A stretch of 33,070 nt of DNA from a virus, in UHGV virus genome UHGV-1834275. One strand, 5' to 3'. A program made the position numbers and the translations under genes. The notes below the pieces were generated by a model. That model had not been told where the DNA came from and did no database searches. It saw nothing but the letters and a program-made list of their open reading frames with translations. Shown here piece after piece: positions 23,764 to 28,232 of this stretch (the first letter of the stretch is position 1; each line of letters opens with the position of its first letter).

Positions 23764-24702
23764 ATGAAACACATAATCCAAACCAGAAGTGTTTTTAAGG
23801 ATATCGAAGACTCTTTATTTAGTGAGTTGCATTCAGCTAAGACAAGTATCAAAATCTGTGTTGCATGGATAAACTTTGAGCTTTTTGAAAATATATTATT
23901 ATCTAAGGCTAAAGAAGGTGTTGAAGTTGAGATATTAGTTAATAATGATTATATCAATACAAAATTTCTTGATAAAATATCTGATAATATAAAACCATTA
24001 ATTAATCTAATTAAAAACCCTATTAGTAACCACTTAATGCATCATAAATTTTGTATCATTGATGATGAAGTTTTGATTACTGGCAGTTATAATTGGTCAA
24101 AAAGAGCACCATATCATTATGAAAATATAATAATCATCCGTAATGATTTCAATCTAATAATGCAATTTAAACATGAGTTTGCAGATTTAAAATACATGGG
24201 TGCAATGCCAAGTACAGAATTTAATGCATTTAAAGTAACCAAAAATCTCAATAGATTTGTTGTTGGCACATATAGTTCATCTGTGGGGATATATGAAACC
24301 GTCACATTGCAGTTATGGGAAATTGATATTAACAACTTAACTTTTGAACGACATGGCGAAATGGATATCCCTTTCTTCAATTATTTATTAGATATTAATA
24401 CTGATGATCATTATCTTATTGATGAAAAAGAAAGGTACATCGATCTATATGATCAAGAGCGTAGACAGATGGAGACTATCCAAAGTCATTTTAGAAGATT
24501 AAATTGTTCAATTCATGCTTATGGAACAGCAATAATAGCGAACGAGAGCGAATACCTTGAAGGTTATGAAGAGCCTATTCGTGTAATTCACTTCAATTGG
24601 ATAGATATGCGATTAAGCAAAGTATTACCCTCTTCTTTGCCCGCAACTATGGAACTTGAAGGATTATGGCACGAAATATATGCTCCAAATGGATATATTT
24701 AA
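23764..24702 (+). CDS. Phospholipase-D-family (single HKD) nuclease with an uncharacterised C-terminal domain
   Basis: Perfect HxK(x)4D(x)6GSxN motif: HHKFCIIDDEVLITGSYN; preceding KICVAWINFELFENILLSKAKEGVEVEILV typical of PLD/Nuc folds; ~170-residue C-terminal region without recognised motifs; AAGGA 7 nt upstream of the ATG. Confidence 0.8.
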   Translation: MKHIIQTRSVFKDIEDSLFSELHSAKTSIKICVAWINFELFENILLSKAKEGVEVEILVNNDYINTKFLDKISDNIKPLINLIKNPISNHLMHHKFCIIDDEVLITGSYNWSKRAPYHYENIIIIRNDFNLIMQFKHEFADLKYMGAMPSTEFNAFKVTKNLNRFVVGTYSSSVGIYETVTLQLWEIDINNLTFERHGEMDIPFFNYLLDINTDDHYLIDEKERYIDLYDQERRQMETIQSHFRRLNCSIHAYGTAIIANESEYLEGYEEPIRVIHFNWIDMRLSKVLPSSLPATMELEGLWHEIYAPNGYI

Positions 24703-24719
24703 ATAATATTCTATAATTA

Positions 24720-25094
24720 ATGAGGAACGGTATTATGTCTAATTATCCTATACCACTTAGCCTTGAATTTAATAGTCAAGATACTGCTAATATCATTTGT
24801 AGTTATCTAGAAAAAAATCATCAAGATTCTATTTTAAAAACCATATTAAATATAGATTTGTCTTTTATTGATTATCGTGCACAATCTTCTAATTACTTTA
24901 TAATTAATGACGTTGAATATATTGGAGATAATAATTATATTTTATATTATAAAATAAACTACTACATTTATAATCTCTGTAAAGATATGGATATTGATGA
25001 TGACTACGAGACTTCGATAAATTTTACATTGAATAATGGATTTTTAGTATTTGATATAATTGATTGTGAAAGAAATATATCAGATGAAATATAG
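24720..25094 (+). CDS. Small acidic hypothetical protein, co-transcribed with the PLD nuclease
   Basis: Starts 17 nt after the PLD stop; Asp/Ile/Tyr/Asn-rich; no recognised motif; followed by a hairpin terminator. Confidence 0.5.
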   Translation: MRNGIMSNYPIPLSLEFNSQDTANIICSYLEKNHQDSILKTILNIDLSFIDYRAQSSNYFIINDVEYIGDNNYILYYKINYYIYNLCKDMDIDDDYETSINFTLNNGFLVFDIIDCERNISDEI

Positions 25095-25197: not shown

Positions 25198-25617
25198 TTA
25201 TAATTGATTCAATCGATAGATATTAGATGTACTTGAGCCATCGCTATACACCTCTGATATAGTCAGTTTGTTTCCATCCACTTTGTATTTTACTACACTA
25301 TCAGCCGGATCATTTCTCCAACGACCTGAGCTATCTGGATTGTTTGATGCCCACATAACTTGATCATCAATCAGTTTGCACTTGATAGCCCATCTTGTGC
25401 TGTCATCTTTACGTATGTAATGGACATAGGCTACATCAGATTGAATCTTATCAAGCTTCATTATTTTATGATCTCGCCCAAACATAGATGCAGCCGCCGC
25501 TTTGCAGATCTGACCAACATTAGCTTCCGCTGCGTAGAGTGAAGAACTGAACAATAATGGCACAATCACTAATAACTTTATCATCGCATATCGTCTCGTA
25601 GTAAAAATTAATTTCAC
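25198..25617 (-). CDS. Secreted/periplasmic protein with N-terminal signal peptide
   Basis: MIKLLVIVPLLFSSSLYAAEA has the n/h/c pattern of a Sec signal peptide with an A-x-A site; the track start is GTG at 25617 with AAGGA upstream, and ATG 25584 is an alternative. Mature part has paired Cys residues; no catalytic motif. Confidence 0.55.
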   Translation of the reverse strand: MKLIFTTRRYAMIKLLVIVPLLFSSSLYAAEANVGQICKAAAASMFGRDHKIMKLDKIQSDVAYVHYIRKDDSTRWAIKCKLIDDQVMWASNNPDSSGRWRNDPADSVVKYKVDGNKLTISEVYSDGSSTSNIYRLNQL

Positions 25618-25618
25618 C

Positions 25619-26344
25619 TTATTTCCTTAATAACTTTTTTAATTCCTCAACTGTCTTCATTTCTTTTCCAATATGAATCATTGCATGACAGTTTGCACAT
25701 AAAGGTATAAGATCTTCAATTGGGTCAATCTTATAGCGTTTACCAATAGTATGTAGTGGCACTATATGATGAACATGAATATAATTTTTTCCGTGACTTC
25801 CATACACTTCTTCAAAATTAAAACCACAGACACCACAACTCAAACCATGTTTATCGATACATTCTTTTCTAGCCTTTGGATCTCTCTCATAGTACGTAGC
25901 AATCCTTTGATGCTTTTCACCTTCATAGTATTCACTTTCTATTTCAGGTGTGAATGAATAGTAATCTTCATCGGTGGCATACCAATCTCCATCTTTTTTA
26001 GTAAGATATTTTCGTACTATTTTCTTTTCAAAATGTTTAATCCTAGCAGCACCATTTTCAGTTGTTTTCTCATGCCTAGTCTGGCTAAAGGTGAAAAGAC
26101 TATACCCTTCATGTAAAATTTTATCTATGTGTTCGATAGATTGTGTATAACCATTTTTTTTGTGTCCATTTACATTTTCACGCCAACTGCTAGCCAAGAT
26201 TAAAACTTTCTTACCATCATCTGATCTAAGATCTTCCCAAGCTCCAAAAATTATTTTTTTGTTGATCTCATCAATAAATGACCAACTCCAGTTATCATTT
26301 TTACATGTAGCACCCAAAGAACGCATGAACTCTGTTCGGGACAT
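25619..26344 (-). CDS. HNH endonuclease (McrA-type HNH) with an N-terminal domain of unknown function
   Basis: C-terminus CGVCGFNFEEVYGSHGKNYIHVHHIVPLHTIGKRYKIDPIEDLIPLCANCHAMIH matches the McrA-type HNH/zinc-ribbon pattern (C..CG...HH..PL...G....N...LC.NCH...H); N-terminal ~170 residues show no recognised motif. Confidence 0.8.
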   Translation of the reverse strand: MSRTEFMRSLGATCKNDNWSWSFIDEINKKIIFGAWEDLRSDDGKKVLILASSWRENVNGHKKNGYTQSIEHIDKILHEGYSLFTFSQTRHEKTTENGAARIKHFEKKIVRKYLTKKDGDWYATDEDYYSFTPEIESEYYEGEKHQRIATYYERDPKARKECIDKHGLSCGVCGFNFEEVYGSHGKNYIHVHHIVPLHTIGKRYKIDPIEDLIPLCANCHAMIHIGKEMKTVEELKKLLRK

Positions 26345-26382
26345 TTTTCATCCTTAAAATATGTGACCTACATCACATGAAA

Positions 26383-26463
26383 CTATCGACTGTAGGAGGT
26401 TTCTATCCTTCGTAAAGCTAACAAACCTACCCAAAGTAGATAGAAACCTCCTACAATCGATAG
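26383..26463. repeat. 25-bp inverted repeat (one mismatch) with 31-nt spacer in a divergent intergenic region
   Basis: CTATCGACTGTAGGAGGTTTCTATC (26383..26407) and GATAGAAACCTCCTACAATCGATAG (26439..26463) are reverse complements except for one position. Confidence 0.75.
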
Positions 26464-26547
26464 TGTATGTGTGTTCCTTTTGATGGTAAAGTATTAATAT
26501 AGTGTTACCTAGACTGGGTGTACATATAATCAATATTTGGGTTTGAT

Positions 26548-27258
26548 ATGCTTAATCTCACTAAATGTAATTTACTTTTGATCGGCACTGTAATAACTCT
26601 ATTACTGATAGCTATTCTTGTAGGTATAAAAATACTATTCTCCGATTCTAATCCAGATCTAGGCAGCTTAGCAGATTGGATCAGTTCTGTATCCGCAATA
26701 GGGACTCTTGGTGTTGCCTGGTTAGCTTATAGTAAAGCTGATGACTACATTGACAAAAAAGCTTCGGAAAGAGGAATTGATATCCTTGTCAATATGGTAA
26801 CTGAATCATTCGTTGCTTATTTCAACTCACTAAATGAAACTAATTTCCATGCTTCAAAACTTGAAAATAAAATGATATTGATTGGCTTGGTTGATGAAAA
26901 AGTAGATTGCAATATTGAACTACAATCATTAAGAGAAAAAATCATAACTCTCTTCGAAAATAGTCATCAAATAGACAAAGATTTTATAAAAATGAAAATA
27001 ATGAAAATATCAAAACCCAGTGATATTTTCTACGATCCAGTAACTAGCGATGATACATTGCAAGCGTTAAAATTAGCATTTCATAAACTGAACACTGAAA
27101 TTTGTGAGAATGAAAATCAATACAACATTAATAATGATTTACTTAGCGAAAATATCAACTTTATTAAAAACACTACCGAAAAGTTAGCCCATGATATTCG
27201 CAAACAGTTCTTTACCTCGCCGAATACTTATAAAGATTATTTTGGAAATCTGTCTTAA
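26548..27258 (+). CDS. Membrane protein with two N-terminal TM helices; paralogue of 779..1519
   Basis: LLLIGTVITLLLIAILVGIKILF then DLGSLADWISSVSAIGTLGVAWLAYSK; shares the GSLADW(L/I)SS loop motif with 779..1519; soluble C-terminal domain diverged. Confidence 0.6.
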   Translation: MLNLTKCNLLLIGTVITLLLIAILVGIKILFSDSNPDLGSLADWISSVSAIGTLGVAWLAYSKADDYIDKKASERGIDILVNMVTESFVAYFNSLNETNFHASKLENKMILIGLVDEKVDCNIELQSLREKIITLFENSHQIDKDFIKMKIMKISKPSDIFYDPVTSDDTLQALKLAFHKLNTEICENENQYNINNDLLSENINFIKNTTEKLAHDIRKQFFTSPNTYKDYFGNLS

Positions 27259-27303
27259 ATTATACGCTATCAAATATTCCATCAACATAAACAAGGAAAG
27301 TAG

Positions 27304-28002
27304 ATGACTACTCTCACTAGAACTTATAATTTACCAAATGAGCTAGTTGAACATTTTTCAAATAACATTGTCTATTTCGAAAAACTTTTGTCTAAGGATT
27401 TTTCTGACTTAAATGTTAATGTAGCACCAGAAGACATTAAGAAAATAGAAAAATCTTTCGAAGTATCACATAGAATACGTGATTTCGAAATCAATCTGTA
27501 TTGGCAAAGACTGAACTTCCTTTGGGCCATTACAGCATTGCTATTTGCTGGATGGGGAACATTGATCTTTAAAATCATCGAATTCAATGGAGGGGAAGCA
27601 CCTTATATTATATTTGCCGCCTTATCATTTCTCTCACTTATAGGTGGGATTGTAACTATATTCACAAGCTTTATCATTGAGGCAGGTAAGCATTGGCAAA
27701 AGGTTTGGGAGTTTCATGTTCACGCTCTTGAACCTTTTGTATCAGGTCATTTATATGCAATTCAGTTTTCTTATAAAAATAAAAAAAAGGCATCTATAAG
27801 TAGAAGCGTAGAAACTTTCAATTATGCTTTGCTGTTTCTTTGGGCATGTTCAGCAGTATTCGCCGCAATCATCCCTTCACAAATAGGGAACGGTCTTGCA
27901 GGCATTATCCAATTAGTTATTTCTCTTCTTATAGTTGGTGCTTTTGTTTATATACGCAACTCTGTTACTAAAAAGGAGTCTATTAAAATTCAGCTTGATT
28001 AA
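27304..28002 (+). CDS. Integral membrane protein (about 4 TM helices) with ~65-residue soluble N-terminus
   Basis: AAGGAAAG ribosome-binding site; hydrophobic segments LNFLWAITALLFAGWGTLIF, YIIFAALSFLSLIGGIVTIFTSFII, FNYALLFLWACSAVFAAII, LAGIIQLVISLLIVGAFVYI; 45 nt downstream of the 2TM gene, same strand; followed by a terminator. Confidence 0.6.
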   Translation: MTTLTRTYNLPNELVEHFSNNIVYFEKLLSKDFSDLNVNVAPEDIKKIEKSFEVSHRIRDFEINLYWQRLNFLWAITALLFAGWGTLIFKIIEFNGGEAPYIIFAALSFLSLIGGIVTIFTSFIIEAGKHWQKVWEFHVHALEPFVSGHLYAIQFSYKNKKKASISRSVETFNYALLFLWACSAVFAAIIPSQIGNGLAGIIQLVISLLIVGAFVYIRNSVTKKESIKIQLD

Positions 28003-28022
28003 TGTAGCATAAGGCATCTACT

Positions 28023-28232
28023 TTAAGCAGCCCCATAATGGGGCTTTCTTTTTTTAGCATTTACTTTTTGAATGCTCATAAGAATCTCACGTACCTTTGC
28101 TTCATTATCACCTGCATCATATAGTACCCCATCTTTCCAGTACTGACCCAGTAGTTCTACTTTTGGTAAGCCCGGCATTGCCCTTACTCCATCTTCGTGA
28201 TCAATATGTAATTCAAGTGATCCAATAATCAT
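28023..28232 (-). CDS. Small hypothetical protein (questionable)
   Basis: ORF only; its last ~10 codons are encoded by the plus-strand terminator hairpin and T-run. Confidence 0.3.
   Translation of the reverse strand: MIIGSLELHIDHEDGVRAMPGLPKVELLGQYWKDGVLYDAGDNEAKVREILMSIQKVNAKKRKPHYGAA
28029..28055 (+). terminator. Rho-independent terminator of the 26548..28002 membrane-protein operon
   Basis: AGCCCCA (28029..28035) / TGGGGCT (28039..28045) stem, 3-nt loop, then TTCTTTTTTT. Confidence 0.6.

Follow-up and report, generated by a model that had tools for sequence, protein, structure and literature searches.

What do two small membrane proteins, encoded side by side in a prophage, do for the phage that carries them or for its host? 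The question is raised by virus genome UHGV-1834275, a DNA stretch of 33,070 nucleotides (the window), in which gene A (26548-27258, plus strand, 236 amino acids) is followed by gene B (27304-28002, plus strand, 232 amino acids). A preliminary description, made from the letters of the window, had put the pair forward as a candidate abortive-infection or superinfection-exclusion system. The reading favoured here, with a confidence that stays somewhat short of even, is that the two genes may form a prophage-borne anti-phage module in which gene A would provide a membrane-tethered specificity subunit and gene B an oligomeric membrane effector. The initial candidacy is partly supported: the described architecture and the general idea hold, and a prophage cargo slot, defence-type neighbourhoods and a hypervariable gene A that is swapped as a cassette speak for it; what falls is the obligate pairing of the two genes, the pointer to SLATT and the ribosome-binding site of gene A.

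The gene pair and its two protein families

The two open reading frames (ORFs) lie on the same strand, 45 nucleotides apart, as had been described. Of the ribosome-binding sites initially assigned to both, only that of gene B holds: a good Shine-Dalgarno sequence (AAGGA, 27293-27297, plus strand) is read from the sequence with the ATG 6 nucleotides further, whereas gene A has a weak GGGT at 26539-26542. The unit is closed by an intrinsic-terminator-like hairpin with a T-run (AGCCCCATAATGGGGCT, 28029-28055, plus strand), which begins 27 nucleotides past the gene B stop codon; its stem (28029-28045) comprises 7 bp, 5 of them G-C pairs, and is followed by TTCTTTTTTT, so that the terminator noted earlier is borne out.

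Gene A had been described as two N-terminal transmembrane helices followed by a soluble domain of about 170 residues, and its predicted topology agrees with this layout. The helix at residues 9-31 is strongly hydrophobic by hydropathy. The second helix (44-61) is rich in Ser, Thr and Gly, and its Kyte-Doolittle value of about 1.2, calculated by hand, is below the 1.5 cut-off. An acidic loop with a GSLADW signature joins the two, and the soluble part extends over about 175 residues (approximately 62-236). In the AlphaFold2 model, built from 105 family sequences (mean predicted local distance difference test, pLDDT, 86.6; predicted template modelling score, pTM, 0.72), the second helix runs on as a single long helix (38-114) and three further helices complete a four-helix bundle. 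The charge bias across both protein families agrees with termini that both face inwards (N-in, C-in), which predicts a cytoplasmic position for the gene A bundle and for the soluble parts of gene B that are conserved.

An exhaustive HMMER search of 1.84 billion representative proteins returned 123 clusters of gene A relatives at E <= 1e-3 and 22 at E <= 1e-10. Gene A has no match in Pfam, NCBIfam, PHROG or PADLOC; nor do 105 relatives when scanned singly, and no Pfam family is common to the members. Judged by these sequence comparisons, gene A founds a protein family that is absent from every library searched. Similarity among the relatives lies mostly in the first 85 residues or so, and the family signature reads [FM]E[WL]GS[VL][ST]DW[IVL]S[SA]LST[LF]GTLx[VI]AxxAYxKAP[DE]WxxQK, or in brief, for the hairpin, GS-x-S-D-W ... 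KAPEW; gene A of the window has the variant DLGSLADW...AYSKADDY. The loop DLGSLADWISS, previously singled out as conserved, indeed represents the family's most conserved signature: G39 and D43, together with A57, A60 and W67, are at least 90 % conserved in the 105 sequences. Some members begin at the signature and hence do not have the first transmembrane helix. The full-length family hidden Markov model (HMM) matches along the whole protein (E = 1e-45 to 1e-80), and the bundle is therefore homologous among members, though very divergent. Named members come from Enterobacteriaceae and are annotated as 'hypothetical', with one exception. UniRef labels the orthologue of Pseudocitrobacter faecalis 'Phage abortive infection protein', a name that no available model reproduced.

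The soluble N-terminus of gene B, first estimated at about 65 residues, comes to about 69 helical residues and is followed, as anticipated, by four hydrophobic helices (approximately 70-94, 98-128, 171-195 and 196-222); the AlphaFold2 model of the monomer has a pLDDT of 70.4. By its profile score, gene B is a clear member of the Pfam family PF24838, '8xMP' (61.1 bits against a cut-off of 30, E = 1.3e-16, profile positions 3-134 of 136), and all 20 of 20 diverse relatives match the same model. This match, together with the 123 gene A relatives, indicates that genes A and B are real and not chance ORFs. NCBI and UniRef name the homologues of gene B 'RipA family octameric membrane protein'. Two segments are conserved in the 8xMP family, FEIxLYWxR just before the first transmembrane helix and GKxWQxxWExHxxxLExxxSG just after the second, the latter reading GKHWQxVWExHxxxLEPxxSG in gene B. 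From hydropathy, the model and the charge bias, gene B is predicted to be an inner-membrane protein whose two best-conserved parts are both cytoplasmic and flank a transmembrane hairpin.

The 8xMP family is widespread, with more than 402 relatives among the matches listed in one metagenome scan, and is taxonomically wide. Against the Pfam model, members from plasmids of Bacillus, Sphingobium, Raoultella, Klebsiella and Pantoea reach 124-146 bits, compared with 61 bits for gene B, whose subfamily is divergent. A broad 8xMP profile search gave only enterobacterial proteins among the matches listed. The PHROG matches of gene B, to families of unknown function, were non-significant (E 0.04-0.09), as was one match in NCBIfam, and literature searches under the names 8xMP and RipA-family octameric membrane protein yielded nothing relevant. 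A comparison with the SLATT and other two-helix effector families had been recommended, and membership of gene B in SLATT was rejected: SLATT_5 gave E = 0.025 and 14.4 bits, below the cut-off of 29.5, and matched one of 20 relatives.

Linkage of the two genes and exchange of gene A

In about a dozen distinct prophage contexts of enterobacteria (the window type and loci L001, L015, L016, L019/L020, L022, L030, L037, L043, L056, L058 and L060), a gene of the A family and an 8xMP gene stand side by side in the same orientation. The association extends to metagenomic loci that are distant (L074, L084, L098 and L106): their 8xMP proteins share only 28-36 % identity with gene B. The gaps within linked pairs are short and, in several, the stop and start codons overlap. 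Three-gene forms also occur, either with the order 8xMP, gene A, 8xMP or with gene A, a short gene A paralogue and 8xMP. Locus L054 (4170-5507) contains a single ORF of 445 amino acids in which an 8xMP part leads into a gene-A-type hairpin and a short bundle, with gene A paralogues of 231 and 234 amino acids on its two sides; this ORF is either a true fusion or the product of a lost stop codon or a sequencing error.

Other partnerships are seen as well. In L013 (5001-6774) and L009 (8-1781), tandem 8xMP genes (232 and 326 amino acids) follow a gene for a 190-amino acid protein with one transmembrane helix that the gene A HMM does not recognise. An upstream partner of about 396 amino acids recurs beside gene A relatives in L026 and on a Salmonella IncHI1 plasmid (L147).

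Whereas the membrane hairpin of gene A is conserved, the remainder of the protein has diversified extensively. Pairwise identity in the family averages 0.32 over the N-terminal region and 0.14 over the bundle, and column entropy rises from a mean of 1.7 bits in helix 2 to one of 3.3 bits in the C-terminal domain. Paralogues occur in tandem arrays of up to four copies. Moreover, gene B orthologues that are 78-93 % identical adjoin gene A alleles with only 42-50 % identity over the first 85 residues and 17-22 % in the bundle. In their DNA, the window and L056 are homologous through the gene for an HNH protein upstream of gene A up to position 26496; this homology is lost over gene A and returns at 27322, inside gene B, which places the left boundary of the swapped cassette at about 26497. 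Homology with L001 is limited to 27293-28077. These breaks on either side of gene A indicate that it is swapped as a unit between conserved flanks. Such cassette exchange, together with the paralogue arrays, is as expected of a part that recognises variable foreign targets.

The window itself carries a second, solitary gene A paralogue (779-1519, minus strand, 246 amino acids; family HMM E = 6e-34), which shares the GSLADW hairpin signature but differs in its C-terminal domain; in BLASTP it shows 29 % identity with gene A over residues 24-85 only. It is located at the opposite end of the prophage, where it directly follows a holin-like gene of 97 amino acids (1580-1873), in DNA with a G+C content of 0.30. 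Elsewhere (L040, L044 and L048, at about 3100-6500), solitary gene A relatives are found between umuD/umuC-like genes and a convergent SRAP/YedK-like gene, a mobile setting that differs from the terminase-proximal slot of the pair.

Prophage setting and genomic company

The window is a prophage, with capsid, portal and a GpA-type terminase encoded in a long block on the minus strand and, at the right end, a large serine recombinase that adjoins a host radical-SAM gene. Near-identical copies exist in Pseudocitrobacter, E. coli and Shigella sonnei: a locus of Pseudocitrobacter faecalis DSM 27453 shares 99.3 % identity with the region, E. coli assemblies share 98.4 %, and S. sonnei also has a copy. 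No close DNA relative was found among GenBank phages or complete E. coli genomes. The pair sits between the terminase genes and the early region, on the strand opposite to both flanks, with late genes on its left and small early-region genes on its right. The stretch from 23.5 to 28 kb has a G+C content of 0.29-0.33, compared with 0.37-0.42 for the structural genes. In related prophages, the same slot is filled by different cargo, a variability that is the pattern of an accessory, or moron, hotspot. Both genes can be regarded, on qualitative evidence, as hotspot cargo, given the variable slot and its defence-type neighbours.

Elsewhere, too, members of both families turn up repeatedly in accessory, defence-type surroundings. 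On plasmid pKN1 of Sphingobium yanoikuyae (L062, 4920-5717), a type I restriction operon with the order hsdR-hsdM-8xMP-GIY-YIG-hsdS-AAA_21 and overlapping gene boundaries includes an 8xMP gene (124 bits). In Bacillus thuringiensis, an 8xMP gene comes after genes for an AAA_15/AAA_21 ATPase and an HNH nuclease in a Septu-like arrangement, and on a B. subtilis plasmid it precedes the gene of a PLD-like protein. In metagenomes, 50 genes that are tight, co-oriented neighbours of 8xMP genes were compared with Pfam, and the matches include Mrr (twice), an HsdM-type methylase, Vsr, SIR2, patatin, reverse transcriptase, DUF2971, a trypsin-like protease and GIY-YIG-type domains. The neighbourhoods have a defence-island flavour, which is qualitative and not a statistic. 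Taken together, this genomic company suggests, without proving it, a role in defending the host against other phages. Genes encoding DUF2971 stand immediately upstream of 8xMP in two unrelated loci (L014, 4106-5708; L068, 639-2280), and a third lies near a gene A / 8xMP cluster (L019, 1975-2748), which suggests DUF2971 as an alternative partner for 8xMP.

Within the low-GC island of the window, the pair is preceded by further genes. A PLD-like nuclease gene and a partner of 124 amino acids located 17 nucleotides downstream of it (23764-25094 together, plus strand) make a candidate defence pair; the nuclease (312 amino acids) matches PLDc_2 with 72 bits and, weakly, also NucT and the PLD domains of the PADLOC proteins MkoC, DpdK and DrmC. 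The HNH protein (25619-26344, minus strand, 241 amino acids) weakly matches a PADLOC model of type IV methyl-directed restriction (E = 1.6e-9), and its homologues (MNRKQFIQSHGATCSNWTWSWSF...) adjoin gene A relatives in other prophages (L021, L026, L050 and L056). A protein of 139 amino acids (25198-25617, minus strand) without significant family match has, from an internal Met, a signal-peptide-like N-terminus (MIKLLVIVPLLFSSSLYAAEA) and is possibly a secreted or lipoprotein moron. At the extreme left of the window, a fragment of a transposase/integrase core domain (8-310, plus strand) probably marks the prophage edge or a neighbouring insertion sequence.

The divergent intergenic region 5' of gene A (26345-26547, no strand assigned) contains an inverted repeat and a TATAAT. 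The latter is present at 26525-26530; a scan for a consensus sigma-70 promoter upstream of gene A found none. The inverted repeat, between the HNH gene and gene A, has 26-nucleotide arms (26382-26407 and 26439-26464) that are 96 % complementary and separated by a 31-nucleotide loop. As RNA, the region folds with -57.2 kcal/mol (z = -6.0 compared to shuffles). The repeat, which is confined to this prophage type, may represent an operator, an RNA element or a remnant. Just past its right arm, L006 carries an insertion sequence, with a break in homology at about 26476-26486.

Possible function, rival explanations and known systems

If the favoured reading is correct, the pair would be a small operon carried as cargo by a temperate enterobacterial phage and expressed in the lysogen, which it would protect against other phages. 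Gene B would form a homo-oligomeric, reportedly octameric, assembly in the inner membrane, with four transmembrane helices per subunit, and serve as the effector. Gene A, tethered to the same membrane by its conserved hairpin and with its hypervariable four-helix bundle facing the cytoplasm, would be the specificity or sensor subunit. Recognition of a component of the infecting phage by this bundle would be the trigger, and the signal would travel through the gene A hairpin, presumably by direct contact, to the gene B assembly. The latter would then either permeabilise the membrane as a pore, giving abortive infection, or block genome entry, giving exclusion. Gene A may also be self-sufficient and able to act alone, in the manner of AbiC or AbiP. 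A broader version of the proposal, which we regard as rather unlikely, is that gene A relatives and 8xMP proteins make up an unrecognised modular type of membrane immunity, with swappable receptors gating the octamer or acting beside it; the receptors, anchored by the hairpin and often arrayed as paralogues, would recognise components of invading phages, and the RipA/8xMP family would then be in origin a defence effector, with Francisella RipA as a domesticated member.

Several observations weigh against the module. The linkage of A and B is recurrent but facultative, and an obligate sensor-effector pair, as first envisaged, does not agree with the sample of 35 viral loci found with the gene A profile: an 8xMP gene is present in only 7 and missing from 28, of which 16 hold a single gene A relative and 12 gene-A-only arrays. 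Of 80 unique gene A relatives, only 18 have an 8xMP gene as their direct neighbour. Conversely, of the 79 metagenomic 8xMP genes, the majority have different neighbours or no neighbour at all. A separate clade of 8xMP-linked gene A alleles was rejected, since linked and solitary alleles are phylogenetically intermixed (nearest-neighbour concordance of 0.60 versus 0.56 expected by chance). About 30 of the 50 tight neighbours of 8xMP genes have no Pfam match, and the defence signal therefore rests on a minority of them. Neither gene A nor gene B proteins were found in 50,697 sequenced phage genomes, so that there is no phenotype to borrow from a studied phage. The recommended search among known defence families gave no PADLOC match for either gene at E <= 1 and no significant PHROG match, and no solved relative of gene B was found in the PDB by sequence or by fold, which leaves the pore without structural support. 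Finally, homology does place gene B in a named family, and the namesake, Francisella RipA, is an envelope and virulence factor involved in intracellular growth and connected with LpxA, not a phage defence protein, and phages go unmentioned in the studies of its roles (PMC4322802; PMC12444477).

The main rival, which we consider unlikely, holds that genes A and B are independent single-gene exclusion or abortive factors that happen to share one cargo slot. The solitary genes and gene-A-only arrays just mentioned, the solitary paralogue at 779-1519 in the window itself, the many 8xMP genes without a gene A neighbour and the intermixing of linked and solitary alleles all fit this idea, as does the fact that AbiC and AbiP work as single-gene systems (PMC13064643). 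It accounts less well for an adjacency that recurs across distantly related lineages, with short gaps or overlaps and a shared strand, for the ORF of L054 that reads as a fusion, and for the single terminator common to both genes in the window.

Two small co-transcribed membrane proteins on a mobile element might also be a toxin-antitoxin or addiction pair that stabilises the prophage, one protein damaging the membrane and the other restraining it, any anti-phage effect being secondary. Plasmid 8xMP genes are indeed found among toxin-antitoxin genes and insertion sequences, and gene A relatives occur near a Hok toxin gene on an IncHI1 plasmid. However, both partners are often alone, which a toxin gene would not tolerate, and the hypervariability and arrays of gene A fit varied foreign targets better than one conserved partner. 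Such a pair is improbable.

A quite improbable explanation is lysogenic conversion of the envelope, in which gene B would act like RipA on lipid A synthesis or LpxA and alter the cell surface or stress tolerance, with gene A as a modulator. The name given to the family of gene B by NCBI and UniRef points in this direction. Francisella RipA is a homo-oligomeric protein of the cytoplasmic membrane with two essential cytoplasmic domains (PMC4322802) and co-precipitates with LpxA (PMC4322802; PMC12444477); the two best-conserved parts of gene B are likewise predicted to be cytoplasmic. However, the placement of RipA in PF24838 rests on the names of homologues, and a ripA mutation had no measurable effect on membrane composition (PMC12444477). 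Furthermore, the neighbours of 8xMP genes are restriction, SIR2, patatin and reverse transcriptase genes and not genes of envelope biosynthesis.

A role in the life cycle of the phage itself, be it lysis timing in the manner of a holin or antiholin or a membrane step of assembly or genome entry, might be suggested by two small inner-membrane proteins and by the position of the second gene A paralogue, which directly follows a holin-like gene where the late operon ends, but is most improbable for a pair that lies opposite to the late genes with its own terminator and an atypically low G+C content, is replaced by other cargo in related prophages, has family members on plasmids and inside restriction operons and is found in none of the 50,697 phage genomes.

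Should the anti-phage module proposed here prove correct, it would provide a function for the widespread PF24838 family, whose only studied name-bearer is a poorly understood virulence factor of Francisella. It would also establish a new prophage protein family in which a conserved hairpin and a swappable cytoplasmic bundle look like a natural specificity cassette, and such modules would shape phage range on clinically relevant Enterobacteriaceae. The reading is directly testable, because the unit measures only 1.7 kb and nature has provided swaps of gene A beside near-identical gene B alleles.

Among known systems, RexA/RexB of phage lambda, to which the layout of the pair had been likened in architecture, is a comparable two-gene prophage unit consisting of a sensor gene followed by the gene of a membrane protein with four transmembrane helices. 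The Rex membrane protein is thought to depolarise the cell upon infection. However, gene A is anchored in the membrane whereas RexA is soluble, gene B exceeds RexB in size and contains cytoplasmic segments that are conserved, and the pairing of A and B is facultative. Homology to RexAB was not detected in PADLOC (E <= 1), nor at a significant level in PHROGs, an indirect result given that the presence of RexA and RexB models in these libraries is unconfirmed.

Another two-gene case is that of gp30 and gp31 of mycobacteriophage Butters, the products of adjacent prophage genes that defend against heterotypic phages; gp31 has predicted transmembrane domains and gp30 none, and co-immunoprecipitation hints at an interaction between them (PMC7542560). 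The host of Butters belongs to an unrelated phylum, and in the window both partners are predicted membrane proteins. SieA of phage P22 is an inner-membrane protein expressed from the prophage that blocks genome delivery at this membrane and exists as highly divergent sequence types (PMC10883804). Its targets are periplasmic and membrane ejection proteins, whereas for gene A a cytoplasmic location is predicted for the variable part.

With AbiC and AbiP, the likeness concerns gene A. These are single genes on mobile elements whose products have two (AbiC) or one (AbiP) N-terminal transmembrane helix followed by an extramembrane domain of about 200 residues (PMC13064643), and the gene A family also includes two-helix and one-helix members. 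The resemblance is one of architecture: the AbiC model of PADLOC matched neither gene A (E <= 1) nor any of the 105 family members (1e-3), and the AbiP domain binds nucleic acid whereas the gene A model shows a plain four-helix bundle. SLATT proteins resemble gene B as small helical membrane effectors of conflict systems (CBASS and related nucleotide signalling); no SMODS, SLOG or cyclase partner was found in the island of the window or among the 50 tight 8xMP neighbours. As to Francisella RipA, its described layout matches that predicted for gene B, a presumed kinship that rests on the NCBI and UniRef names of homologues; RipA is encoded by a chromosomal gene and gene B is prophage cargo.

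Prophage-encoded membrane defence or exclusion is thus a kind of system already known from RexAB, SieA and Butters gp30/gp31. New here are the gene A family, its recurrent coupling to RipA/8xMP proteins, the natural swapping of gene A cassettes, and a defence-type context for RipA/8xMP, otherwise known only from a virulence factor of Francisella.

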